Assembly (NCBI GenBank): GCA_025453415.1
Contig: JALOQL010000002.1
Span: 1 to 43,433, forward strand
Direction: 5' to 3'
Source: Minisyncoccota bacterium
GTDB taxonomy: Bacteria; Patescibacteriota; Minisyncoccia; Minisyncoccales; UBA5738
DNA: 43,433 nucleotides
Part shown: positions 4,608-43,222 of the stretch, in pieces
Layout: each line of letters begins with the position of its first letter
Position numbering within the stretch: position 1 is the stretch's first letter
The notes under the pieces: model-generated
Told to the model about the DNA's origin: nothing
What the model saw: only the letters and a program-made list of their open reading frames with translations
The model's database searches: none
Translations under genes and position numbers: made by a program

Positions 4608-5747
4608 TTATTTTTTAGCTTTTTTCGCCGGCGCGAAGAATTCCCTGACGCAGGCAATGACGTAATCGACTTCGGCGTCGGTAAGCTCCGGATAGATCGG
4701 CAAACGCACCAATTCCTTGGCGATGCGCTCGGTCACCGGCAAATCGAATTGCTCCAGCCCCAGACCCGGCAATTTGTGGTTGGGCGTGGTATCGCGGATC
4801 AGCAGCTCAACATTCTTGGACTGCATGAATTTCTTGAACTTCCAGATGTCGGGAACCTTGATGATGTATTCCTGGAAAATTTGCTGCGGCTGCTGCGTCG
4901 GCAATTCGATGGGCAGGTCTTTGAGCCCCTTCTCGTATTTCATGCCGATCGCCCGACGGCGGCGCAGCATCGCCGGATAGTATTTTATCTTGATGTTCAA
5001 TATCGCGGCCTGGATGTTGTCCAGCCGTGAATTGTAACCCCAATCCATTATTTTAGGCGCCTTGGGCTGGTGCCCCAGCAAGGCATTCTGCGTAATGTTC
5101 CAGTGGTTGCGCAAAAGCAGAAGTTTTTCATAGACCTTCCTGTCGTTGGTGATGATTCCGCCCGCGTCGCCCGCCCCACCCAAAGTCTTGGGGGAAATGA
5201 ACGAGAAACATCCGGTCGCGGCAAATGTCCCGGCTTGTTTTTTACCCAAATAAGCGCCCAGCGCCTGGCAGGCATCCTCAACCACCCACAAATTGTGTTT
5301 TTTGGCGATTGCCATGATCCGGGGCATATCGCAAACCTTGCCCGACAGATGCACCGGCACGATCCCCACGGTTTTTTCGGTAATGAGCCCCTCGAGCAGA
5401 TCGACGTTCATCAACGCGTCCTCGCCCACGTCAATCAATATCGGCTTGGCGCCCAAATGGACAATCTCCTCGATCGGCGCTAAAAACGTGTGCGACGGCA
5501 CGATCACCTCGTCGCCGGGCTTGATGCCCAGCGCCTTGTAGGAGATCTTCAAGGCATCGGTGCCGGAGTTGACGCCGACGGCGTATTTGGCGCCGCAAAA
5601 ATCAGCCAGGTTTTTCTCGAACTTGTCCACGTCCTCGCGCAAAACAAAATCCCCTTTCGAGAAGCATTTGTCCAAGGCCTTTAATATCTGGTCCTTATGG
5701 GCGGCGTAGTAACGGCGGTAACTGGAATTTATAAAATCAACCTTCAT
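4608..5747 (-). CDS. DegT/DnrJ/EryC1/StrS-family PLP aminotransferase (likely 4-keto-6-deoxy sugar 4-aminotransferase, PglE/WecE-like, by context)
   Basis: 379 aa. Motifs: GVNSGTDALKISYKALGIKPGDEVIVPSHTF, EDACQALGA, and the PLP-lysine region FSFISPKTLGGAGDAGGIITND. It sits directly upstream of the 4,6-dehydratase in the same block. A minus-strand TATAAT (rc of 5779-5784) lies 32 nt upstream of the ATG. Confidence 0.9.
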   Translation of the reverse strand: MKVDFINSSYRRYYAAHKDQILKALDKCFSKGDFVLREDVDKFEKNLADFCGAKYAVGVNSGTDALKISYKALGIKPGDEVIVPSHTFLAPIEEIVHLGAKPILIDVGEDALMNVDLLEGLITEKTVGIVPVHLSGKVCDMPRIMAIAKKHNLWVVEDACQALGAYLGKKQAGTFAATGCFSFISPKTLGGAGDAGGIITNDRKVYEKLLLLRNHWNITQNALLGHQPKAPKIMDWGYNSRLDNIQAAILNIKIKYYPAMLRRRRAIGMKYEKGLKDLPIELPTQQPQQIFQEYIIKVPDIWKFKKFMQSKNVELLIRDTTPNHKLPGLGLEQFDLPVTERIAKELVRLPIYPELTDAEVDYVIACVREFFAPAKKAKK

Positions 5748-14428: not shown

Positions 14429-15334
14429 TCAAGCGGCCTGTCGGATTATACGGGCCGGGTTCCCGACCACCACCGCGCCGGCGGGCACCGATTTCAGCAC
14501 CACGGCGCCAAGCCCCACCGTAACCCGGTCGCCGACAACTATGCCGTTCATGATCGAGCTGTTGGGCGCGATCCAGCAATCGGCGCCGATCCGGGCGCTG
14601 CCGCACACCGCCGCGCCGGCGATAACCAGGGTCCGGGCGCCAATTTTGACATTATGGGCGACAAACACATTATCGTCAATTTTAACGTTGTCGGCGATCT
14701 CGGTGTCCGCAAGCGTGCCGCGGCAAATAACGCTGTTGGCGCCGATTTCCACATTATCGCCGATCACCACGCCGCCCAAATGCTTCAGAGGAAAAGGGAT
14801 CCGGTTTTCATCGCGTTCAAAACCAAAACCTTTCTGGCCCACCACCGCATTGGATTTAATGACCGTATTTTTGCCGATCCGCACGTTATCGGCAACGACC
14901 GCGCCGGCCATGACCACCGAACCGTCGCCGATGGCGACATTTTTTCCGATGACCGCGTATTCGCCAATGACAACGCGGCCGATCCGGCAACCCTCGCCGA
15001 TCAGCGCGGTGGGATGGATCTTGACTTCGAATTCCGGGGGCGTAAGGCGTTGGATCAATTTCGCAAACGCCAGCCGCGGATTTTGAACAACGACATAAGC
15101 CCGGCCGTTCTTTTGCGGCAATGTTGCGCCGCGGCGGCAAACCACGATCGAAGCGACGCTCTGCTCCAGAAACCGCGCCGCTTCTTCTCCCTGACGGCTG
15201 CAAAAGCAAAGCGATTCCCCGTTGGCGCGGTCAATGGGCAGGAAATTTGAAAAAGTCGCGGCCGGGTCGCCCTGAATTTCGATCTGCTCGCCGGCCAGAA
15301 CCTCTCTGACCGAATCCAATGTGTGTTTTTCCAT
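14429..15334 (-). CDS. LpxD-architecture left-handed beta-helix N-acyltransferase (nucleotide-sugar amine N-acyltransferase)
   Basis: 301 aa. The N-terminal domain resembles the LpxD uridine-binding domain (GDPAATFSNFLPIDRANGESLCFCS...ASIVVC). Hexapeptide repeats follow, with GQKGFGFERDE...VVIGDNVEIGANSVICRGTLADTEIADNVKIDDNVFVAHNVKIG. The LpxD C-terminal helical extension is absent. Confidence 0.85.
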   Translation of the reverse strand: MEKHTLDSVREVLAGEQIEIQGDPAATFSNFLPIDRANGESLCFCSRQGEEAARFLEQSVASIVVCRRGATLPQKNGRAYVVVQNPRLAFAKLIQRLTPPEFEVKIHPTALIGEGCRIGRVVIGEYAVIGKNVAIGDGSVVMAGAVVADNVRIGKNTVIKSNAVVGQKGFGFERDENRIPFPLKHLGGVVIGDNVEIGANSVICRGTLADTEIADNVKIDDNVFVAHNVKIGARTLVIAGAAVCGSARIGADCWIAPNSSIMNGIVVGDRVTVGLGAVVLKSVPAGAVVVGNPARIIRQAA

Positions 15335-15344
15335 GGTTTTCGCG

Positions 15345-15989
15345 CTAACGAATCGTCCATTTCACGACCTGGAAAGTTTCGGCGTATTCGGCATCGCCGC
15401 TCTGGCCCCCCCGGACTTTGGCCAGGCTGGAAATGAAATCGGGAGACATGTAAAAACGGTTCCCCTGCGATTTATAGCACGCAAGCGCGGCAATCTTCTT
15501 GTCCAGATCGCTTTTCCCAAGTACCACAAACGATTCGGTCTCAAAAGTCAGATTGTTCCAAGGGAGCTCATAGCCCAGAATGCTCACCTGGGTACCCTTG
15601 AACGCCCTCAAACCTTCTTGATACATGACTTGATGGTCCTGATGCACGTCAAAAACCGAAGGCAGCATCACAATGCCCGGATCGATCTTTCTCTTCAATC
15701 CGATCAGGTCGTCGAGGATTTGCTGGCGATGTCCGGGAAAATTCCTGACCGGATAATTGAAAAGGATAAGGTTTTCCGGCTTTAACCCCAAAATCCGGGT
15801 CGCTTCGCGCACTTCGGTTTTCAGGATATCGCGGGGAAATCCCGGCGGCACGGATTCGTCAGCCGAGGAAAAAGCCGCGTAAAACACTTCCTTGCCCTCC
15901 CGGATGAATTTGGCAATGGCGCCGCCGCAGCCCAATTCGCCGTCATCGGTATGGGGACATATTATCAATATTTTATCAAATGAATCCAT
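15345..15989 (-). CDS. PIG-L/LmbE-family N-acetyl-sugar deacetylase
   Basis: 214 aa. ILIICPHTDDGELGCGGAIAKF (PHxDD) and VFDVHQDHQ (HxDH) zinc-binding motifs. Confidence 0.9.
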   Translation of the reverse strand: MDSFDKILIICPHTDDGELGCGGAIAKFIREGKEVFYAAFSSADESVPPGFPRDILKTEVREATRILGLKPENLILFNYPVRNFPGHRQQILDDLIGLKRKIDPGIVMLPSVFDVHQDHQVMYQEGLRAFKGTQVSILGYELPWNNLTFETESFVVLGKSDLDKKIAALACYKSQGNRFYMSPDFISSLAKVRGGQSGDAEYAETFQVVKWTIR

Positions 15990-17918: not shown

Positions 17919-19055
17919 CTATCTTAAAACTTCCCTTACGCTATGGATAACATGGTCTAAATCATTTCTTGACATCTTCGGATACAGCGGCAAAGAAACT
18001 TCCCTTTCGTAGACCCATTGGGCGTTGGGAAAATCTTCTTTTTTCAACCCGAAATTTTTCCGGTAATATGGCTGGAGATGCAAGGGAATGAAATGGACGC
18101 TGCATTGGACCCCGTTGGCGGACATTTTTTCAATGAACTCCGCCCGGTCGGCGTTTTCGAGCAAGATCGGATAAAGATGGTAAATATGTTTTCCGTATTC
18201 CATTTCCCGGGGAATGACTACTCCGCCGATTTTCGACAACTCTTGGTCGTATATTCCGGCATATTCCCTCCTGGTCCGGTTGAAACCGTCCAGCTTTTTA
18301 ATTTGGTGAATTCCCAAAGCCGCCTGAATATCCATCATATTATATTTCCAGCCGCATTCTTCGATCTCGTAATACCAATTGCCTTTCTTGGAATATCTTT
18401 TCCAGGCATCGCGGTTCATCCCGTGCAATTTCAAGACTTCGGCCTTCGCGGCGATGTCGGCGTCGTCGGTCGCGATCGCACCGCCTTCCCCGGTCGCCAA
18501 ATTCTTCGTCACGTAAAAACTGAAACAAGTGGCTTTGCCGATAGTCCCGATCTTTCTGCCTTTATATTCCGCGCCAATGGCATGCGCCGCGTCCTCGATG
18601 ACCGCCAATTTATATTCTCCGGCGATTTCCATAATTCGATCCATGTCGCAAGCTTGGCCGCCGTAATGGACGGGAATGATGGCTTTCGTTCTTATCGTGA
18701 TCGCCTTCCTTATTTTTTCCGGATCGATATTAAAAGAATCCCGATTGATATCCACGAAAACCGGCGTAGCGCCCACCTGAACGATCACGTTGGCTGTGGA
18801 AGCGAAGGTGAAAGTCGTAGTGATCACTTCATCGCCGGGGCCGATATTGAGCGCCAACAGGGAAAGATGCAGCGCCGCCGTGCACGAATTGACCGCGACG
18901 GCATATTTGGCGCCGACATATTCGGCGATCATTTTTTCGAATCTGACGGTCTTCGGGCCGGTCGTCAGCCAGCCGCTTTTCAGGGTATCGACCACCTCGT
19001 CAATCTCTTCTTGGCCGATCATTGGCTGGCAAAACGGGATGTATTTATTTTCCAT
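17919..19055 (-). CDS. DegT/DnrJ/EryC1/StrS-family PLP aminotransferase
   Basis: 378 aa. Motifs: PFCQPMIGQEEIDEVVDTLKSGWLTTGPKTVRFE, NSCTAALHLSLLALNIGPGDEVI, EDAAHAIGA, FSFYVTKNLATGEGGAI. Confidence 0.9.
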   Translation of the reverse strand: MENKYIPFCQPMIGQEEIDEVVDTLKSGWLTTGPKTVRFEKMIAEYVGAKYAVAVNSCTAALHLSLLALNIGPGDEVITTTFTFASTANVIVQVGATPVFVDINRDSFNIDPEKIRKAITIRTKAIIPVHYGGQACDMDRIMEIAGEYKLAVIEDAAHAIGAEYKGRKIGTIGKATCFSFYVTKNLATGEGGAIATDDADIAAKAEVLKLHGMNRDAWKRYSKKGNWYYEIEECGWKYNMMDIQAALGIHQIKKLDGFNRTRREYAGIYDQELSKIGGVVIPREMEYGKHIYHLYPILLENADRAEFIEKMSANGVQCSVHFIPLHLQPYYRKNFGLKKEDFPNAQWVYEREVSLPLYPKMSRNDLDHVIHSVREVLR

Positions 19056-35279: not shown

Positions 35280-36362
35280 TTATCTTGCGGACGCCATTTT
35301 TTCGAGCATGGCGGTTATCCTGCCGGCGGCATTGCCGTCCCCGAATTCATTGCCGGGGCGAGTTTGCGGCACCGGGGCGGCAATGGCCTTTTCCATCTTG
35401 CCAATATCCGTCCCCGCCAAAGTGTTCCATCCCGCGGCCACAGTTTCCGGCCAGCAATTTTCTTCCAAAAGAGTCACGCAGGGAACTTCGGTCCAATAGG
35501 CCTCTTTTTGGATGCCGCCGCTGTCGGTAACGATCTTTTTAGCTCCGGATTGAAGCGCCATCATGTCCAGATAACCGACCGGATCGATAAGCTTGATGTT
35601 TTCCGCCGGCCGAATCTTGTTTTTATCCATTGCGGCGCGCGTACGCGGATGGACCGGGAAAACCGCCGGCCCGGTATTGGCAAGCGCTCCCAGGATCCGG
35701 CCCAAAACCGCCGGATCATCCACGTTCTGAGGCCGGTGGATCGTGACCAGCAAATATGTATTTTTTGCCAGCCCGGTTTTTTCGATGATCGTCGAATTGT
35801 CGGCAAAACGTTTTCCGCGCCGGAAAGAATCATACATCAGATCGCCGACGTTATGCGCCCGCTCGCCCAGGCCTTCCCGTTCCAGATTGGCCACCGAAGA
35901 TCGGACCGGGCAAAAGAGCGCGTCCGAAACATGGTCGGCCACCAGCCGGTTGATCTCTTCGGGCATCGCCCGATTGAAAGCGCGCGGCCCGGCTTCGATA
36001 TGGGCAACCAGTATATGCATTTTTGCCGCCACCAGGGCGCCGGCAAGTGTGGAATTGACATCCCCCACCACCGCCACGATATCCGGCGTTTCTTTTTGCA
36101 AAACCTCTTCGATCGCTTCCATCATCCTGGCCGTCTGGCGCGCATGCGTGTCCGAACCGATACCCAGGTTGTAATCCGGTTTGGGAATTTCCAGGTCCTG
36201 GAAAAAAACCTGCGACATCTCATAGTCGTAATGCTGGCCCGTATGGACCAAGACCGGTAAAAAATCAGGATGGTTTCGCCATTGCCAAAAAAGAGGCGCG
36301 ATCTTTATGAAATTCGGCCGCGCCCCCACGACAATGGCAATCTTTTTTTTGTTATCCCCCAT
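35280..36362 (-). CDS. wecB: UDP-N-acetylglucosamine(-uronate) 2-epimerase, non-hydrolysing (WecB/WbpI family)
   Basis: 360 aa. Motifs: IAIVVGARPNFIKIAPL, VHTGQHYDYEMSQVFFQDLEIPKPDYNLGIGS, VVGDVNSTLAGAL, DSGGIQKEA. Confidence 0.9.
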   Translation of the reverse strand: MGDNKKKIAIVVGARPNFIKIAPLFWQWRNHPDFLPVLVHTGQHYDYEMSQVFFQDLEIPKPDYNLGIGSDTHARQTARMMEAIEEVLQKETPDIVAVVGDVNSTLAGALVAAKMHILVAHIEAGPRAFNRAMPEEINRLVADHVSDALFCPVRSSVANLEREGLGERAHNVGDLMYDSFRRGKRFADNSTIIEKTGLAKNTYLLVTIHRPQNVDDPAVLGRILGALANTGPAVFPVHPRTRAAMDKNKIRPAENIKLIDPVGYLDMMALQSGAKKIVTDSGGIQKEAYWTEVPCVTLLEENCWPETVAAGWNTLAGTDIGKMEKAIAAPVPQTRPGNEFGDGNAAGRITAMLEKMASAR

Positions 36363-37458
36363 AGAATTCTTTAATTGTTTTTAGCGCTATTTCCTGTTCA
36401 TCGGCGGAAAATTCCGGATAGATCGGCAAGCTAATAACTTTTTGCGAAATTAGCGCCGCGTTCGGGCAGCTACCGGCCTCGATCCCGAGGTATTCGAATG
36501 CCGGCTGGGAATGCAATGGCACCGAATAATAAACCATCGTCGGGATCTGGCGTTCTTTTAAAAATTTTTGCAGCGCATCCCGCCGGTCGGTCGTGATCGT
36601 GTATTGGTGAAAAACGCATTCCCGGCCGCTTCCGATCCCCGGAAAAATCATATCGCCCGCTCCCGCCAAACTTTCGTTGTATTTTTCGGCAATTCCGATC
36701 CGCAAATCGTTACAGTCGTTCAAATGGCGCAATTTCACCCGCAGGACCGCGGCCTGGATCGCGTCCAGGCGCGAATTGACCCCCAGGGTCAAATGCAAAT
36801 ATTTGTTTGTCGGCGAAGAACCGTGAGCGCGCAATAATTTTATTTTTTGCGCGATATCGTCGTTATCGGTCGTCAGCATTCCCCCGTCGCCGTAAGCCCC
36901 CAAATTCTTGGTCGGGAAAAAGGAAAAACAGCCGATATCGCCGACGGTGCCGCAAAATTTTTGACCGCACTTTGCACCCATCGCCTGCGCCGCGTCCTCG
37001 ATGACATACAAATTACCGTCCTTGGCGATTTTGGAAATCGCCGTCATATCCGCGGCCCGGCCGAAAAGATGGACCGGGATGATCGCTTTGGTTCTGGAAG
37101 TTATCTTTTTTTCGATATCTTCGGGATCGATATTGAACGTTACCGGATCGATATCGACGAAAACCGGCACGGCGCCGCACTGGGCCACCGTTTCGGCCGT
37201 GGCGATGAAAGTAAAATCCGGTACCAGCACTTCATCGCCCGGCCCGATATCCAAGGCTTTCAATGCCAGGTAAAGCGCGTCCGTACCCGAATTGAGAGTA
37301 ATCGCGTGCGCGGTCTCCAAAAAAACGGCCGCCTCTTTTTCAAAAGCCGCCACTTCGGGGCCGCCGATAAAAACGCCGTTTTCCAGCGTTCTCAAAACCG
37401 CCCCGTCAATTTCTTCCTTTATCGATTGATACTGTTTTTTAAGGTCGAAAAATTCCAT
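36352..37458 (-). CDS. wbpE: DegT-family aminotransferase, WbpE/WlbC-like (3-keto-UDP-GlcNAcA aminotransferase by context)
   Basis: 368 aa. Motifs: FFDLKKQYQSIKEEIDGAVLRTLENGVFIGGPEVAAFE, NSGTDALYLALKALDIGPGDEVLVP, EDAAQAMGA, FSFFPTKNLGAYGDGG. The symbol is assigned from neighbourhood only. Confidence 0.85.
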   Translation of the reverse strand: MEFFDLKKQYQSIKEEIDGAVLRTLENGVFIGGPEVAAFEKEAAVFLETAHAITLNSGTDALYLALKALDIGPGDEVLVPDFTFIATAETVAQCGAVPVFVDIDPVTFNIDPEDIEKKITSRTKAIIPVHLFGRAADMTAISKIAKDGNLYVIEDAAQAMGAKCGQKFCGTVGDIGCFSFFPTKNLGAYGDGGMLTTDNDDIAQKIKLLRAHGSSPTNKYLHLTLGVNSRLDAIQAAVLRVKLRHLNDCNDLRIGIAEKYNESLAGAGDMIFPGIGSGRECVFHQYTITTDRRDALQKFLKERQIPTMVYYSVPLHSQPAFEYLGIEAGSCPNAALISQKVISLPIYPEFSADEQEIALKTIKEFYGG

Positions 37459-37467
37459 AATCGATTA

Positions 37468-37896
37468 TTATTTCCCTATTAAAAAAATCCCGAAAATCAC
37501 GCACAAGATACCGGCAAATGAGTAAACGCCCAAGGAAGAATGGAACAGTATCGGCGCGAGCAAAGCAACGAGGACGAATTGGCATGATTTCAATGTTGTC
37601 GCGTAACCAGGATTCGGTGCCATTTTTATCGCGTTAACATCAAAAAAATTAGCAAAAAGCGAAAATATCGCGGCAATGGCAAAAAATAGAAACATTTTCG
37701 GCGTCACGGCGTAAAGATCGCTTTTCTCAATGGCATTCCAGATGAAAAAACCCAGGAACACCAGCCCGAAAAGGAAAAAATTCAAGACCAAGGGTTTGAC
37801 GCCCATCAATAACAATTTTTTATAAACCAATATCATCGCCCCGTAAAAAACCGCGGCCAGCAATCCGCTCACGAACCAATTTTGTATTATTGGCAT
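37468..37896 (-). CDS. Single-EamA-domain small membrane protein (half-size DMT)
   Basis: 142 aa with about 5 hydrophobic spans. It carries APNPGYATTLKSCQFV, the same motif as both halves of 8390..9241. Confidence 0.7.
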   Translation of the reverse strand: MPIIQNWFVSGLLAAVFYGAMILVYKKLLLMGVKPLVLNFFLFGLVFLGFFIWNAIEKSDLYAVTPKMFLFFAIAAIFSLFANFFDVNAIKMAPNPGYATTLKSCQFVLVALLAPILFHSSLGVYSFAGILCVIFGIFLIGK

Positions 37897-37923
37897 AAGA
37901 TTGATCCTCGCCTCTTGCGATAA

Positions 37924-38775
37924 CTAATATTCATAAAAACCCTTTTTTGTTTTACGCCCTAAATATCCTCGTTCTACCATTTCCCGGATAAGCGGACAAG
38001 GACGGTATTTTTTGTCGGAAAAACCCTGCTCAAGACCTTCCATTATCCTCAAACAAACGTCCAAACCAATCAAATCGGCCAGCTCCAGCGGCCCCATGGG
38101 AAATTTGCCGCCTAATTTCATTATTCTGTCGATATCCTCTTTTGACGCAATCCCCTCCTGCAAACAAAAAGCTGCTTCATTGATCATGGGCAAAAGCAGG
38201 CGGTTCAGCAAAAAACCCGGGGAATCCTTGACCAATACCGGAACCTTGCCCAGGTTTCGCGCGAATTCCATCGTTCTTTCCACGGTCTTAGCCGAAGTGT
38301 CCGCGCCGGGCGCGACTTCCACCAGATCGATGATGAACGGCGGATTCATAAAATGCATCCCCGTGATCCGCTCCCTTCCGGACAAATCACGCGCGATCTC
38401 GGAAATCGTGATCGCCGAAGTGTTTGATGCCAAGATCGTTTCCGGCGGACAAGCGCGATCCAGCTCGGCAAAAAGCGCTTTTTTGCTGGCCAAATCCTCA
38501 TTGATCGCTTCGCAAACGAACGCCGCGCCGGCGGCCTCGCCGATATCATCGATAATTCGAACCTGTTTGAGCGCCTTTTCAAAATCGGGCTGGGTGATCT
38601 TTCCTTTTTGAAAATCCTTGCCGAATATTTTGCTGATTTCCGCCGCTGCCCGTTGCCGGGCGGCCGCATCGGGTTCGCAAACCAGCACCGCGTAGCCGCG
38701 TCGGGCGCATAAAACGGCGATTCCCTGCCCCATGACCCCCCCGCCAATGACCGCGATTTTATCCATGGGCTGCAT
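37924..38775 (-). CDS. hbd: 3-hydroxyacyl-CoA (3-hydroxybutyryl-CoA) dehydrogenase
   Basis: 283 aa. Motifs: KIAVIGGGVMGQGIA, ASNTSAITISEIA, GMHFMNPP, SPGFLLNRLLLPMINEA, GPLELADLIGLDV. Confidence 0.9.
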   Translation of the reverse strand: MQPMDKIAVIGGGVMGQGIAVLCARRGYAVLVCEPDAAARQRAAAEISKIFGKDFQKGKITQPDFEKALKQVRIIDDIGEAAGAAFVCEAINEDLASKKALFAELDRACPPETILASNTSAITISEIARDLSGRERITGMHFMNPPFIIDLVEVAPGADTSAKTVERTMEFARNLGKVPVLVKDSPGFLLNRLLLPMINEAAFCLQEGIASKEDIDRIMKLGGKFPMGPLELADLIGLDVCLRIMEGLEQGFSDKKYRPCPLIREMVERGYLGRKTKKGFYEY

Positions 38776-38788
38776 ATTAAAATTGATT

Positions 38789-39370
38789 TTAAGCTAATCC
38801 GACCTCCTGACCTTTCTTGGTATATTTCCGGCCGCAAGCCGAACAGCTTCCCGCTTCTTGGCCACCGGATCCAGAAACAAATTCCAATTTAATGCCGCAT
38901 TCGCAGACCCAACCGATCTGCTTGGCCGGCACGCCCACCATCAACGCGTGATCGGGAACTTGGCCTTTGACCACCGCGCCGGCGCCAATGAGCGCCCATT
39001 TGCCGATGGTCGAACCGCAAACGACCGTCGAGTTGGCGCCAAGAGTAGCACCTTCTTTGACCAGCGTCGGCAACCATTCTTCCTTGGTCTTTGGATATTT
39101 TGCCCGCGGATTCAAATCGTTGGTAAATACCGCCGACGGACCCACAAAAACATAATCCTCCAAGGTAACCTTATGCCAAACATCGGTGTTGGACTGGATC
39201 TTGACGCCGTTGCCGACAGTCACTTCGCCGACCAAGCAATTATGGCCGATAACGCAATTTTCTCCAATGACCGCTCCCTCGAGCACTTGGGCGTTGTGCC
39301 AAATCTTTGTTCCGTCGCCGATAACGGCCTTCGGGGAAACTTCGGCGGTACTATGAATGGTAATCGGCAT
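38789..39370 (-). CDS. wbpD: Hexapeptide-repeat N-acetyltransferase, WbpD/WlbB-like, with C-terminal CxxC...CxxC tail
   Basis: 193 aa. IHSTAEVSPKAVIGDGTKIWHNAQVLEGAVIGENCVIGHNCLV, then the tail WVCECGIKLEF...CSACGRKY. The symbol is assigned from neighbourhood. Confidence 0.85.
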   Translation of the reverse strand: MPITIHSTAEVSPKAVIGDGTKIWHNAQVLEGAVIGENCVIGHNCLVGEVTVGNGVKIQSNTDVWHKVTLEDYVFVGPSAVFTNDLNPRAKYPKTKEEWLPTLVKEGATLGANSTVVCGSTIGKWALIGAGAVVKGQVPDHALMVGVPAKQIGWVCECGIKLEFVSGSGGQEAGSCSACGRKYTKKGQEVGLA

Positions 39371-40151
39371 ATAATTTTTCGATAAGTTCGATGGGCGGCA
39401 AAACCTCGGCGGGAGTCACGCCCTTTCCCCGCGTCAAGTCGCGGTAAACGAACTGGTGCAGGTTTTCTTCGGCTAAATTTTCCTTCTTTGAAAAATTTAC
39501 CTGCTCGCCATTAATGGTAAATTCCCTTTTCCACGGCTCATCGATCTTGGCGCCGACGCTAACCCGCCACGCGCAATCATAGTTCGCGCCTTTAATGATC
39601 CCGGTGCCGGTCTTACCGTCAAACGCATCCATTCTCGCTTCGGTCGCTGGTCCGAAAAGATTCAACAACAGCTCAAAATAGTGAGGGCCTAAAACGAAGA
39701 GCGGGCCGCCCGACCGATCGATATCACCTTTCCAACCCTCGAAATAGTGCCGGTCGCGGTAAACAAAAATATCCATTTTAATATCGTATCGCTCCTTGGC
39801 GGAAATTTCCTTTTCCAAGCGTTGGTATTCCGGATGGTAACGCAATTGCTGGACCACGAATATGTTTTGGCGTTTCATCAAATCGCGGATGTGTTCGGAT
39901 TTGATCGCCATGGGTTTTTCGCTCAAAACGATCTTCCCCGCCTCGTTGGCCGCGACCGCGATCGGATAATGCAGATAATTGGGCGCCAGCACGACAGCGC
40001 AATCCGCCTCGGGATTGGCAACCAATTTTTTCCACTCTTCTCCCCGGCCGTGCGTGATATCGCAAACGTCAACAATCTCGCCGCCGGTTTCGCGGATGGC
40101 CCGCAAATGGTTGCGGAAAATAAATCCTGTACCAATGATAACAAACTTCAT
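39351..40151 (-). CDS. wbpB: Gfo/Idh/MocA-family oxidoreductase, WbpB/WlbA-like (short form)
   Basis: The track start at 40250 overlaps the upstream gene. ATG 40151 (MKFVIIGTGFIFRNHL...) lies 4 nt after the upstream stop. LSEKPMA (EKP motif). 266 aa. 20-nt overlap with the downstream gene. Confidence 0.8.
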   Translation of the reverse strand: MKFVIIGTGFIFRNHLRAIRETGGEIVDVCDITHGRGEEWKKLVANPEADCAVVLAPNYLHYPIAVAANEAGKIVLSEKPMAIKSEHIRDLMKRQNIFVVQQLRYHPEYQRLEKEISAKERYDIKMDIFVYRDRHYFEGWKGDIDRSGGPLFVLGPHYFELLLNLFGPATEARMDAFDGKTGTGIIKGANYDCAWRVSVGAKIDEPWKREFTINGEQVNFSKKENLAEENLHQFVYRDLTRGKGVTPAEVLPPIELIEKLYADYHS

Positions 40152-40155
40152 ATGA

Positions 40156-41478
40156 TTAGAATCGAAAAACATTTTTATGATTGCGCGATTTGACCGCATT
40201 GCGGGTATCGATGACCAGCTTGGCGTTTTCGGCCAATTTTTCATAATCAAAACCCGAATGGTCGGTTAAAATGACCACCGCGTCATAGTCTTCGGCCGCG
40301 CCAATGCCTTCGGCCAAGGAACGCAGCGCTACCGGATGGCCGTTTTTCAGCATGTAATTTCCGGCCGGGACAGAAAATTCGGAAATATGGGGATCGAAAT
40401 AATCAACCTTGGCGCCTTTGCGCAAAAGATTGGCGATGATATCGGCCGCGCCGCCTTCGCGCGGATCGTTGATATCCCTTTTATAGGCCACGCCCCAGAT
40501 CAATATCTTGGAACCGTTGAGGGGTTTCCCGGCCCGGTTGAGCGCAAACCCGGTTTTAGCAACGACATTGTGCGGCATCTGCTCGTTGATCTCCCCGGCA
40601 AGTTCGATAAAACGCAGCCAGAAGTTGTACTCTTTGGCTTTCCATGAAAGATAGAACGGGTCGAGAGGGATGCAATGGCCGCCAACCTTTGGCGAAGGAT
40701 AAAAGGCCTGGAATCCGTAGGGCTTGGTCTTGGCCGCCTCGATCACTTCCCAAATATCAATATCCATCTTGCCGCAAAGGAGCGCCAGCTCATTGATGGC
40801 GGAAATATTGATCAACCGGTAGGTATTTTCCAGGATCTTGGTCATTTCCGCGGCACGCGCCGACGAAACCGGATGGACGTGCTTCAAAAACTGCGAATAG
40901 AACAACGCGGCCAGCTTGGTGCACTCGGGCGTAATCCCGCCCACCACCTTGGGCACTTCGTTGAGCGGCATGGTATTGCCCGGGTCGATGCGCTCGGGCG
41001 CGAACGCCAAATAAAAATCCTGGCCGCACTTCAGCTCGCCTTCCTCGAACATCGGCAAAAGCACCTCGTCGGTCGTACCCGGATAAGTGGTGCTTTCCAG
41101 GACGATCAGCTGCCCCGGCCGCAAATATTTTTTAATTTCCCTTGCCGAATTTTGGATATAGGAAATATCGGGAATCTTGTATTTGTCCAAAGGCGTGGGC
41201 ACGCAAATGATTATCACATCGGCATTCTTGAGCGACGCGAAATCAATCGAAGCGGTAAATTTTTCCGCTTCGATTATTTTTTTGAGGTCGCCGTCTTTCA
41301 CGTCCTGGATGTAGGATTCCCCGCGGTTCAGCGCTTCCACCCTTTTTTGCTGGATATCCAACCCGATGACATTCATCCCGGCATTGGCGATCTCCAGCGC
41401 GTGCGGCAGCCCCACATACCCCATTCCGATTATCGCGACCTTCGCCTCCTTCCTCCCGATCAGTTCATTTAGGTTCAT
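40156..41478 (-). CDS. wbpA: UDP-N-acetyl-hexosamine 6-dehydrogenase (WbpA/WecC/Cap5O family)
   Basis: 440 aa. Motifs: KVAIIGMGYVGLPHALEIANAG, VPTPLD, GGHCIPLDPFYLSWKA. The symbol is assigned from neighbourhood. Confidence 0.9.
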   Translation of the reverse strand: MNLNELIGRKEAKVAIIGMGYVGLPHALEIANAGMNVIGLDIQQKRVEALNRGESYIQDVKDGDLKKIIEAEKFTASIDFASLKNADVIIICVPTPLDKYKIPDISYIQNSAREIKKYLRPGQLIVLESTTYPGTTDEVLLPMFEEGELKCGQDFYLAFAPERIDPGNTMPLNEVPKVVGGITPECTKLAALFYSQFLKHVHPVSSARAAEMTKILENTYRLINISAINELALLCGKMDIDIWEVIEAAKTKPYGFQAFYPSPKVGGHCIPLDPFYLSWKAKEYNFWLRFIELAGEINEQMPHNVVAKTGFALNRAGKPLNGSKILIWGVAYKRDINDPREGGAADIIANLLRKGAKVDYFDPHISEFSVPAGNYMLKNGHPVALRSLAEGIGAAEDYDAVVILTDHSGFDYEKLAENAKLVIDTRNAVKSRNHKNVFRF

Positions 41479-41485
41479 ATTGCCT

Positions 41486-43222
41486 TTATTGGCTTAAAAT
41501 TTCGTTTAATTTCTTGCGCGTCGCCGGGCCCACGTAACCGGTGCCGTTCTTGTACCCGTAGGGCGTCAGGATCGCCGCCGCGTATTTTTCCTGGAATTTG
41601 GTCACCGCCGCTTTGGTTTCTTCGGAATACCGGCCGTTGAGCGTCACCGCCATACCTTCGTTTTTCAAGATCTGCTGGAGGCAGTAGACCTGGTTGTAGT
41701 TTTCGATGCCAAAATACAGGTCGGCGGTTACTTGTTTGCAGGAATAATTCACATTTGCCGTCGCCACAGCCAGTTTGGCTAAAAGAAGCGCGCGCAGCCG
41801 CGCGATCTCTTTTTTCAAATAATCGATCTGCGCCAAAAGCTTTGCCTGCAGATCCTGGTCGTTTTGGCCCGCGCTTGGCTGCGCCAGCGTTACCTGCAAC
41901 GAATACAATAAATGCCCGCCGCTGCCGTTGCTGCCGAATCTCGAGGTTTTTCCGGCCGCGAACGGCATAAGCATCAGCGAAGCATATTGTTTGCCGAAAT
42001 CCGGCAAAGATAAATTCGCCTTCCCGTCGCCGCCCACCGCCAGATCGCCCACTTTGCAGTTTTGGTTATCGGTCGAACAAAGCATATACGGAACCATAAA
42101 ACCGGCTTCGGGCCCGCCCGCAAATGTCAGCGTCAAATTGCCGCCGCCGCCCACGATCTTTTGCCAGCTTCCGGAAAAATAATCCGCGTTATAAGTAACC
42201 CCCAGCGATACCTGGTCGGAACTCGGCAGGAAATTGATGCGCGGAGCGACATTATAGTTTTTGAGGCCCGTGAATTTATAGCAATATTGGCCGCCCAAAC
42301 GGCAATCGTTAGCCGCCAGCGCCACAAGCCAGTTGCGGAAAACCTGGATGAAATCAATGTTATGGCCGTTTTTACGCAAAGCATAATTAAAAGAATCGAT
42401 ACCGGTCTTTTCGGTGAGCATCGTGTCGGCGATCACGCCCGTTCCGTACTGGTCCACAACGTACTGCATGAAAAGATGCGCCGCGCCGTAGTTTGCCGGT
42501 TTGTTCGCCCACTCCACCAAACTCTTGGTCGTGTCTCCAGAAAACGATTTTACCCGCTGTTCGAAATTGCTGCCCGCATAGGGATTGTCGTATCCCAGAA
42601 CAGTCGACGAATAATCCGCGCGCGCCTCGTTGGCCCAAACCTCATCGGTCACGCCACGCAGGCGATCCTTTTGGTTGAAAGTTATCAAATGGGTAAACTC
42701 ATGCGCCAAATAGGCCTTGGCCAGCGCCGCATCGACGAATTTGGTATTAAAATAGACCATTTCCCGCTCGTTGGAGGCCGGCACCTGGTTTTTGGTGTAG
42801 CCATCGCCGGTGTTAATATAACCGCCGGCATCCTTGATCATGGGATGGACCAGGACCGTGATCTTGCCGTCCTTATTGACCACCGGATTGACATCGGTAC
42901 CCCAAAGCGAGGTCAGCTTAGGGGAAATATTGTTGTGAAATTCCGTATCCAGGCTTTGAAACGCGGCGCTGTACTTCACCTTATCGCCGGCCGCCAGGCT
43001 ATTCCACCATTGGTCGTCGACATAAAAATATATCCGGCCACCCACCCAGACCAGAGTGGCCGAAAGCTTGGCGCGGCCGGTCAAATCATAAGTTTTGTCG
43101 ATATTGAAAGTAAAATTGTTGCCGTAAGTGTCGGCAAAAACGCCGTACGGCAAAGATACCGCCAGCGCCGCAAAAACGAGACAAAACAAAAAAGTACCGG
43201 TTTTTACCGCAAAGTTTCGCAT
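41486..43222 (-). CDS. Secreted/anchored putative zinc metallopeptidase (HExxH) with coiled coil and C-terminal peptidoglycan-binding (PG_binding_1-like) domain
   Basis: 578 aa. N-terminal signal/anchor TGTFLFCLVFAALAVSLPYGVFA. Metallopeptidase strings AYLAHEFTHLITF ... WANEARADY. Coiled coil LQAKLLAQIDYLKKEIARLRALLLAKL. C-terminal LQQILKNEGMAVTLNGRYSEETKAAVTKFQEKY. Confidence 0.7.
   Translation of the reverse strand: MRNFAVKTGTFLFCLVFAALAVSLPYGVFADTYGNNFTFNIDKTYDLTGRAKLSATLVWVGGRIYFYVDDQWWNSLAAGDKVKYSAAFQSLDTEFHNNISPKLTSLWGTDVNPVVNKDGKITVLVHPMIKDAGGYINTGDGYTKNQVPASNEREMVYFNTKFVDAALAKAYLAHEFTHLITFNQKDRLRGVTDEVWANEARADYSSTVLGYDNPYAGSNFEQRVKSFSGDTTKSLVEWANKPANYGAAHLFMQYVVDQYGTGVIADTMLTEKTGIDSFNYALRKNGHNIDFIQVFRNWLVALAANDCRLGGQYCYKFTGLKNYNVAPRINFLPSSDQVSLGVTYNADYFSGSWQKIVGGGGNLTLTFAGGPEAGFMVPYMLCSTDNQNCKVGDLAVGGDGKANLSLPDFGKQYASLMLMPFAAGKTSRFGSNGSGGHLLYSLQVTLAQPSAGQNDQDLQAKLLAQIDYLKKEIARLRALLLAKLAVATANVNYSCKQVTADLYFGIENYNQVYCLQQILKNEGMAVTLNGRYSEETKAAVTKFQEKYAAAILTPYGYKNGTGYVGPATRKKLNEILSQ

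Follow-up and report, generated by a model that had tools for sequence, protein, structure and literature searches.

We analysed a 43.4-kb stretch of DNA (43,433 nucleotides (nt); contig JALOQL010000002.1), referred to below as the window, with a focus on a gene for a predicted 3-hydroxybutyryl-coenzyme A (CoA) dehydrogenase (Hbd) that is located inside a cassette of Wbp/Wlb-type sugar-nucleotide genes. The window is a single contig (C33) of a 1.02-Mb metagenome-assembled genome, which is 71% complete and belongs to the genus of Candidatus Nealsonbacteria DGGOD1a (Patescibacteria), the genome of which is complete; the genomes of relatives range from 0.3 to 1.4 Mb. Nearly the whole window is occupied by one co-directional glycan gene array on the minus strand. 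All eight open reading frames (ORFs) of the region around the Hbd gene are present on this strand, head to tail, and two genes further along the array, encoding a PIG-L-family de-N-acetylase and an LpxD-like acyltransferase, are included here as candidate partners of Hbd. The features are, with lengths in amino acids (aa):

41486..43222, minus strand: PG_binding_1-domain protein, 578 aa, with a C-terminal match to Pfam PF01471 (25.6 bits); first gene of the unit
40156..41478, minus strand: WbpA-type UDP-N-acetyl-hexosamine 6-dehydrogenase, 440 aa (TIGR03026, 423 bits)
39351..40151, minus strand: short WbpB-type protein, putative UDP-GlcNAcA 3-dehydrogenase, 266 aa (GFO_IDH_MocA, 56.9 bits)
38789..39370, minus strand: WbpD/WlbB-type hexapeptide N-acetyltransferase, 193 aa (AT193; 178 bits to 3MQG of the Protein Data Bank (PDB))
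37924..38775, minus strand: predicted NAD-dependent 3-hydroxybutyryl-CoA dehydrogenase (Hbd), 283 aa (3HCDH_N and 3HCDH domains)
37468..37896, minus strand: half-size EamA/DMT membrane protein, 142 aa (PF00892, 46 bits)
36352..37458, minus strand: WbpE-type UDP-3-keto-GlcNAcA aminotransferase, 368 aa (DegT, 410 bits)
35280..36362, minus strand: WbpI/WlbD-type UDP-2,3-diacetamido-2,3-dideoxy-glucuronate 2-epimerase, 360 aa (Epimerase_2, 323 bits)
15345..15989, minus strand: PIG-L/LmbE-family de-N-acetylase, 214 aa (PF02585, 61.5 bits)
14429..15334, minus strand: LpxD-architecture hexapeptide N-acyltransferase, 301 aa (LpxD N-domain and Hexapep)

The cassette thus reads A-B-D-(Hbd-EamA)-E-I. Neighbouring genes in this region overlap by up to 20 nt or are separated by up to 27 nt, no terminator-like site was found between the genes of 35280-41478, and a promoter-like site was located at 43257-43229, ahead of the PG_binding_1 gene. 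The contig has a GC content of 0.519, the genome one of 0.503. Mis-binning of the contig was considered and ruled out, as its WbpB, WbpA and PG-binding genes are 61-77% identical to those of same-genus genomes and its GC content matches.

Profile searches and matches to solved structures bore out the proposal of an earlier sequence-only reading that the five enzyme families WbpA, WbpB, WbpE, WbpD and WbpI are present in this cassette. The score of the WbpA-type protein against TIGR03026 is far above the cut-off of 190 bits, all three UDPG_MGDP_dh domains are present, the best PDB matches are 4R16 and Cap5O (217 bits), and related cassettes carry proteins 73-78% identical to it. Its predicted role is well supported at the level of the family, with the GlcNAc or the ManNAc form as possible substrate. 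The WbpI-type protein matches 8SXV, a UDP-2,3-diacetamido-2,3-dideoxy-glucuronate 2-epimerase, at 352 bits, as against 269 bits for the UDP-GlcNAc 2-epimerase 4NEQ, and TIGR00236 at 288 bits. The WbpE-type protein aligns over its full length with WbpE (3NYU, 293 bits), with two other sugar aminotransferases, 7B0D and 2OGA, scoring higher, and is 52-63% identical in related cassettes. The WbpD-like protein aligns with WlbB (3MQG) over residues 4-184, with an E value of 1.5e-51.

The WbpB-type protein is the least typical of the five. Its best PDB matches are the WbpB structures of Thermus and Pseudomonas (3O9Z and 3OA2), at just 79 and 73 bits; it has 266 aa compared with 312-318 aa for the solved WbpB proteins, and it reaches no NCBIfam cut-off. 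Orthologs of 265-270 aa, 67-77% identical, occur in relatives, and in this lineage (orthologs in L008-L015) the protein is consistently about 50 residues below the solved WbpB, with a weak match of the C-terminal domain. Members of the WbpB cluster carry the JGI name UDP-N-acetyl-2-amino-2-deoxyglucuronate dehydrogenase. The putative WbpB role leans mainly on the position in the cassette and on WbpB being the best match. The ORF coordinates held as first given except for the start of this oxidoreductase, which is most likely the ATG at 40151, matching all relatives and giving 266 aa, and not the TTG at 40250. Taken by their matches, four of the five Wbp/Wlb roles are well supported, and the cassette is by homology a genuine one of the Wbp/Wlb type, predicted to make a UDP-2,3-diamino-2,3-dideoxy-hexuronic acid.

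Comparison with six genomes of the same genus or family showed what is particular to the window. These genomes carry the series PG-binding protein, (WbpA), WbpB, a 193-aa acetyltransferase, WbpE and (WbpI), with proteins about 47-78% identical to those of the window. In all six, the acetyltransferase adjoins the aminotransferase directly, without Hbd or EamA, and the window cassette is therefore interrupted relative to its own genus. The claim that Hbd and the 142-aa EamA protein were inserted in the middle of the cassette was thereby confirmed. A homologue of Hbd was found in none of 60 relatives (0/60).

The inserted Hbd has the PF02737 (3HCDH_N, 204 bits) and PF00725 (3HCDH, 125 bits) domains, scores 262-275 bits against solved Hbds in the PDB at 45-50% identity, and is the sole 3HCDH-family gene in the assembled genome. 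The catalytic residues S120, H141, E153 and N191 are invariant in the alignment of its clade and map to S117, H136, E148 and N186 of A2HBD, the Hbd of Faecalibacterium prausnitzii. K57 and K59 are likewise invariant and match K54 and K56 of A2HBD when mapped by motif offset rather than by structure; in A2HBD these lysines hold the CoA ribose and 3'-phosphate (PMC11476959). A CoA thioester is indicated as the substrate by the invariance of these CoA-binding lysines. We therefore predict that Hbd is a true NAD-dependent 3-hydroxyacyl-CoA dehydrogenase. Genes of a butyrate or beta-oxidation context (thiolase, crotonase or acyl-CoA dehydrogenase) were found neither in the window nor in the assembled genome. 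The gene does not appear to be decaying, because its GC content (0.523) and its GC content at third codon positions (GC3) equal those of its neighbours and because it has fewer breaks at conserved positions than its clade fellows (13 changes at positions at least 97% conserved, versus 14-25 in the other seven members of the well-supported clade described below, many of them shared within the clade).

The nearest homologues of the window Hbd, 48-58% identical, were all found in glycan loci. Maximum-likelihood analysis grouped eight glycan-locus Hbds in one clade (support 99/96), the remainder branching beside it; P0002, which is sister to the window Hbd (support 100/99), adjoins a 242-aa acyltransferase. 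A hexapeptide N-acyltransferase gene lies directly beside Hbd in all 11 loci examined (beside a thiolase-Hbd pair in L197), and two arrangements recur. In seven loci, the window and six others, Hbd occupies a Wbp slot between the acyltransferase and WbpE genes, the six others (L001, L003, L004, L028, L106 and L193) having the order WbpA, WbpB, a QdtC-like acyltransferase of 242-270 aa, Hbd and WbpE. In the remaining four, Hbd is associated with a PIG-L deacetylase and an LpxD-like acyltransferase: the order is PIG-L, Hbd, LpxD-like acyltransferase and GT2 in L109, L191 and L196, and PIG-L, thiolase, Hbd, LpxD-like acyltransferase, GT2, methyltransferase and Bac_transf in L197. The latter locus is predicted to hold a complete route from acetyl-CoA, set between deacetylase and acyltransferase. 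The position of Hbd is non-random, as it recurs in at least seven diverged loci, and by sequence and gene context the clade lives in glycan loci beside sugar N-acyltransferases, so the window Hbd is no stray fatty-acid gene.

Several of these loci have features of their own. The Hbd of L197 (L197:3898-4995) has 365 aa; its N-terminal extension of about 90 residues matches no Pfam family and might serve to dock the thiolase. In L001 (L001:10852-12153), the WbpE-type gene was called as 433 aa, and its product aligns with that of the window in two blocks, between which some 60 residues are inserted. L028 (JAQUYY010000309.1, labelled Candidatus Gastranaerophilales) is a 2.6-kb contig with WbpB, a 242-aa acyltransferase, Hbd and WbpE, like the Patescibacteria loci; its WbpB is 78% identical over the 36 residues present, and the contig may be mis-binned. 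A metagenome scan with the alignment of the Hbd clade returned 80 loci, almost all of them with ordinary Hbds and no glycan neighbours. The only one of the 80 in which an ordinary-looking Hbd (51% identical to that of the window) is followed by a DegT aminotransferase (30% identical to the WbpE-type protein of the window) is L111:6947-9240, which may be a further independent link between Hbd and a glycan locus. We also considered an obligate two-gene module of Hbd and the 242-aa QdtC-like acyltransferase that would replace WbpD. This was rejected, as the same type of enzyme, about 240 aa long and 44-69% identical to the Hbd neighbour of L001, stands at the WbpD position of the Wbp cassettes L026-L035 (Dehalococcoidia, Thermotogae, Nautiliaceae and Caldisericales contigs from metagenome-assembled genomes) with no Hbd nearby.

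The second arrangement directs attention to the pair of genes at 14429-15989 of the window, which are 10 nt apart and have no Hbd between them. Orthologs of the PIG-L protein, 50-75% identical, lie beside Hbd or thiolase-Hbd in L109, L196 and L197, and orthologs of the LpxD-like enzyme, 50-62% identical, lie directly after Hbd in L109, L191, L196 and L197. Synteny is most extended with L196/L207, where the PIG-L (75% identity), LpxD-like (62%), GT2 (57%), Bac_transf (72%) and EamA (54%) proteins all have counterparts and where Hbd is located between the PIG-L and LpxD-like genes. The LpxD-like enzyme was found in none of the 60 relatives (0/60), which is the same pattern as that of Hbd. It has the PF04613 (38.8 bits) and Hexapep (103 bits) domains and scores 115-119 bits against LpxD structures in the PDB. 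These alignments stop 4-18 residues short of the end of the enzyme (at residues 283-297 of 301), near LpxD residue 300-310; across the entries, the matching chain positions lie between about 301 and 337, in chains of 341-374 residues. By this alignment end, the enzyme is without most of the C-terminal part that recognises acyl carrier protein (ACP). A search of this genome and of four relatives gave no PP-binding (ACP) gene. An acyl-CoA donor fits this enzyme, given that the ACP-recognition part is mostly missing and that no ACP gene was found. These comparisons make it most likely that the single Hbd feeds the PIG-L/LpxD-like pair rather than the adjacent WbpD-like enzyme.

Based on these comparisons, we give somewhat better than even weight to the reading that Hbd makes (S)-3-hydroxybutyryl-CoA for sugar N-acylation, with the PIG-L/LpxD-like pair as the main user. 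The product of this dehydrogenase family is the (S)-isomer. In the proposed route, acetate would be converted to acetyl-CoA by Acs, the gene for which is present, and acetyl-CoA to acetoacetyl-CoA by a genus-conserved thiolase, which we place outside the assembled 71% of the genome. Hbd would then reduce acetoacetyl-CoA with NADH to (S)-3-hydroxybutyryl-CoA, as suggested by homology and by its intact residues. The PIG-L enzyme (15345-15989) would strip the N-acetyl group from a UDP-amino sugar, and the LpxD-like acyltransferase (14429-15334) would put 3-hydroxybutanoyl on the freed amine in place of acetyl, the WbpD-like enzyme most likely still acetylating the 3-amine. The earlier idea that Hbd supplies 3-hydroxybutyryl-CoA for a sugar amine is well supported by clade, linkage and residues as far as the supply is concerned, and the 3-amino site that it favoured, reached through the enzyme at 38789, is less probable. 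The acyltransferase at 14429, which had been named as a second candidate, gained support, since its orthologs adjoin Hbd in four other loci and it is missing from 60 of 60 relatives.

Several observations weigh against this reading. Hbd lies 22 kb from the LpxD-like gene and 13 nt from the WbpD-like gene, an adjacency that favours the other user, and the closest relatives of the window Hbd are Wbp-slot Hbds. In L198/L206 the PIG-L/LpxD-like pair occurs with no Hbd within 10 kb, so the pair does not strictly need a neighbouring Hbd. The window also encodes three aminotransferases versus two N-acyltransferases, and the LpxD-like enzyme could, on that count, acylate an amine made by an aminotransferase and not a deacetylated one. 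The Hbd itself is below the curated NCBIfam cut-offs (330.9 versus 408 bits for NF004474, 281 versus 420 for NF005715 and 257 versus 319 for NF005875), and is placed by its sequence in a diverged sub-clade. At positions at least 97% conserved in 111 ordinary Hbds, this clade shares several substitutions, including that of Met149 by Ile within the signature of the catalytic loop and that of His225 by Phe; given the substitutions in the catalytic loop, its substrate preference may differ from that of classical Hbd. The window Hbd also has the longest end branch of the six Wbp-slot members (0.76 versus 0.35 for its sister). Finally, neither the window nor the assembled part of the genome (71%) yielded a thiolase, and the presence of this gene here, though probable, is extrapolated from relatives.

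The adjacency and the Wbp-slot kinship of Hbd would favour the adjacent WbpD/WlbB-like enzyme as the user of 3-hydroxybutyryl-CoA, with UDP-GlcNAc3N(3-hydroxybutanoyl)A or its manno epimer as the product. The two genes belong to one operon, the window Hbd is nested among the Wbp-slot Hbds of six other loci, and the exact sugar is natural, GlcNAc3N(3-hydroxybutyryl)A occurring in Plesiomonas shigelloides O51 (PMC3210612). In addition, a loop of the window enzyme after NPRAKYPK is four residues shorter than in the orthologs of the Hbd-less relatives and sets it apart from them. That deletion, however, simply restores the length of the loop in WlbB, a proven acetyltransferase against which the enzyme scores 178 bits. 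The neighbours of Hbd in the other Wbp-slot loci are of a different, QdtC-like type (242-270 aa) and are only 35-36% identical to the window enzyme, which shares 58-69% identity with its positional counterparts from six relatives that lack Hbd. Because close orthologs sit in relatives without any Hbd, the WbpD-like type would work with acetyl-CoA, and acylation by the enzyme at 38789, as first proposed, became less likely. We regard the adjacent enzyme as a rather unlikely user, although the two users do not exclude each other.

The long end branch and the unusual neighbour of the window Hbd could also be explained if Hbd were a leftover, its QdtC-like partner having been lost by recombination to a canonical WbpD-type gene, with all N-acyl groups of the glycan being acetyl. 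The sister P0002 does lie beside a 242-aa acyltransferase that is not of the WbpD type, and the lack of a thiolase in the assembly would agree with a gene out of use. The ORF is intact, however, with catalytic, NAD-binding and CoA-binding residues all kept and with fewer breaks at conserved positions than in other clade members, and the GC and GC3 values like those of the neighbours fit a long residence. Under the reductive pressure on this genome of about 1.4 Mb, an unused gene would be unlikely to last through a divergence of about 42% from its nearest relative, and a ready consumer is present in the same array, namely the PIG-L/LpxD-like pair, which has its own Hbd elsewhere. A leftover Hbd therefore appears improbable to us.

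The source of acetoacetyl-CoA bears on both the leftover and the preferred reading, and the concern raised earlier, that the window has no thiolase, stands as an observation and was softened by the wider family. A 380-aa thiolase of the Thiolase_C_1 type is encoded in 13 of 14 family genomes (11/12 of the same genus and 2/2 of the sister genus); the copies of the four genomes compared share 84-94% identity, and the identity to the thiolase encoded within L197 is 42%. It is located at G006:C1:1065729-1066868 (L205:3227-4369), and also on G001:C54, G012:C39 and G013:C29. The gene order around the thiolase of the complete relative recurs on contig C74 of the window's genome, and this contig stops about 0.8 kb beyond the shared gene, short of where the thiolase would be. 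The break of C74 before this position, together with the conservation in the family, indicates that the thiolase gene probably lies in the missing 29% of the genome. The suggestion that the organism is unable to make acetoacetyl-CoA was weakened by this wider search. The acetate-CoA ligase (Acs) is bona fide in the lineage (869 bits). Neither this genome nor four relatives, one of them with a complete genome, yielded a crotonase, a FabH-type enzyme, an ACP or a 3-hydroxy-3-methylglutaryl-CoA (HMG-CoA) reductase. In the Nealsonbacteria genus, the thiolase is kept by genomes that lack Hbd as well as these four proteins, and since no HMG-CoA reductase was found, this thiolase would not belong to a mevalonate pathway.

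The clade-shared substitutions around the catalytic loop would also fit a role in which Hbd makes no free donor and instead reduces an N-acetoacetyl group already on the sugar nucleotide, in the manner of VioR, or mainly re-oxidises the NADH of the short WbpB. In the published scheme of the viosamine pathway, dTDP-N-acetoacetylviosamine is drawn before the reductase step (PMC3927599), and in the Wbp slot Hbd is the second gene behind the NAD-dependent 3-dehydrogenase, which has 50 residues fewer than the solved WbpB. Against both roles, all clade members keep the lysines for the CoA ribose and 3'-phosphate, relatives without Hbd manage with the same 266-aa WbpB, and four clade members lie in the PIG-L/LpxD-like slot and not beside WbpB. 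We consider such a non-donor role very improbable. A link to WbpB could take a broader form, in which the glycan-locus Hbds, with their shared catalytic-loop changes, are a functionally distinct subfamily, dedicated partners of hexapeptide N-acyltransferases, and the Wbp-slot Hbd uses the NADH from WbpB so that one donor is made per C-3 oxidation and goes on to acylate the amine placed at this same carbon, the two steps being coupled in stoichiometry; this more elaborate proposal we hold to be improbable.

The half-size EamA gene is the second insert of the cassette. Its single EamA domain covers residues 8-140 of 142, with about five hydrophobic segments, which falls short of the architecture of two domains and 10 transmembrane (TM) segments, and the protein would presumably have to dimerise to resemble a full EamA/DMT member. 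It is absent from every other cassette seen, and the 60 relatives contain no ortholog, the only matches, of at most 35% identity, being with halves of 10-TM proteins. Either half of the 283-aa EamA protein encoded at 8390-9241 matches it at 27-28% identity, and the GC content of the half-size gene is low (0.417). The half-size EamA is a locus-specific addition outside the conserved module.

At the other end of the cassette, orthologs of the PG_binding_1 protein, 47-64% identical, are located directly upstream of WbpA/WbpB in L001, L003, L004 and L016-L021, so that the protein stands ahead of the cassette in all related loci, which suggests a fixed functional link between this protein of about 580 aa and the glycan. 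Elsewhere in the array, the three sugar aminotransferases are encoded at 4608-5747, 17919-19055 and 36352-37458 and the two N-acyltransferases at 14429-15334 and 38789-39370, and five methyltransferases are encoded as well. At least one amine installed by an aminotransferase may stay free, be methylated or share an acyltransferase.

To place the locus among known systems, we compared it with pathways for which enzymes or products have been described. Like the WbpA/B/E/D/I set of Pseudomonas aeruginosa and WlbA-D of Bordetella, the window has all five families in one operon, with solved WbpB, WlbB and the diacetamido-uronate 2-epimerase as the best structure matches of their counterparts and WbpE as a strong one; it differs in the order A-B-D-(Hbd-EamA)-E-I, in its 266-aa WbpB and inserts, and in its host, a Patescibacteria of monoderm type and not a Gram-negative producer of O-antigen. 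The Wbp/Vim pathway of Porphyromonas gingivalis and Tannerella forsythia removes the C-2 acetyl group and then reacylates (PMC7468200). The same logic of deacetylating and reacylating a Wbp product is proposed here, and a gene for an AsnB-type amidotransferase is present in both loci. The window, however, encodes PIG-L where that pathway has the CE4 enzyme VimE, and an LpxD-like beta-helix where it has VimA; the acyl group would be 3-hydroxybutanoyl instead of seryl or glycyl, and the Wbp product is here a putative substrate. Comparable steps are known from LpxC/LpxD, with a zinc-type de-N-acetylase followed by a UDP-sugar N-acyltransferase with an LpxD N-domain and a left-handed beta-helix, and 3-hydroxyacyl transfer is predicted here too. 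In the window, PIG-L stands in place of LpxC, most of the C-terminal ACP-recognition part is gone and there is no ACP; the chain is predicted to be C4 and to come from CoA, and the setting is a glycan locus of the Wzx/Wzy type.

Compared with the butyrate-pathway Hbds (EC 1.1.1.157) of Clostridium butyricum, C. acetobutylicum and F. prausnitzii, the glycan-locus Hbd has the same fold, length, catalytic Ser/His/Glu/Asn residues and CoA lysines. It differs from them in having no thiolase, crotonase, bcd or etf neighbour here, in occurring in glycan loci only, in scoring below the NCBIfam cut-offs, and in the clade changes of Met to Ile in HxFxPxxxMxLxE and of His to Phe at 225. A published parallel for the supply of the acyl group is the viosamine island of Pseudomonas syringae pv. 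tabaci (vioS, vioR, acp and vioB), where in-locus supply is by a 3-ketoacyl-ACP synthase III, a short-chain dehydrogenase/reductase-type reductase and an ACP, and where a vioR mutant loses the modified sugar (PMC3927599). Both are glycan loci with their own 3-hydroxybutyryl supply beside a hexapeptide N-acyltransferase. The supply is ACP-based in the viosamine island, whereas here it would be CoA-based and of the 3HCDH family, with no ACP found and the condensing enzyme encoded elsewhere.

Transferases for 3-hydroxybutanoyl are known in QhbC (PMC9676051) and QhbA (PMC3628348) of Acinetobacter baumannii, in Psb5, a predicted one from Shigella boydii type 7 (PMC3628348), and in a 3-hydroxybutanoyltransferase gene of Escherichia coli O103, as cited in PMC3726653. 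These loci resemble the window in the transfer of 3-hydroxybutanoyl onto a nucleotide-sugar amine, which is predicted here, and differ in that, as described, they encode the transferase only: no in-locus gene for acyl-donor supply is mentioned in the descriptions consulted for the QhbC, QhbA/Psb5 and O103 loci. Our literature search, in which subscription journals were poorly covered, found no 3HCDH-type Hbd in an O-antigen, capsule or Wbp locus.

N-acyl groups beyond acetyl, notably 3-hydroxybutanoyl, are common on bacterial surface sugars, and Acinetobacter capsules commonly contain amino sugars with an (S)-3-hydroxybutanoyl group (PMC9676051). The Hbd clade described here, which travels with sugar N-acyltransferases in the window and in at least 10 further loci, would provide a sequence marker with which hydroxybutanoylated glycans can be predicted. 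The two alternative homes of Hbd, the Wbp slot and the PIG-L/LpxD-like slot, point to a route of deacetylation and reacylation. If Hbd serves sugar N-acylation, an ultra-small symbiotic bacterium without fatty-acid metabolism would keep one such enzyme for the decoration of its surface, and the surface glycans of Patescibacteria probably mediate attachment to the host.

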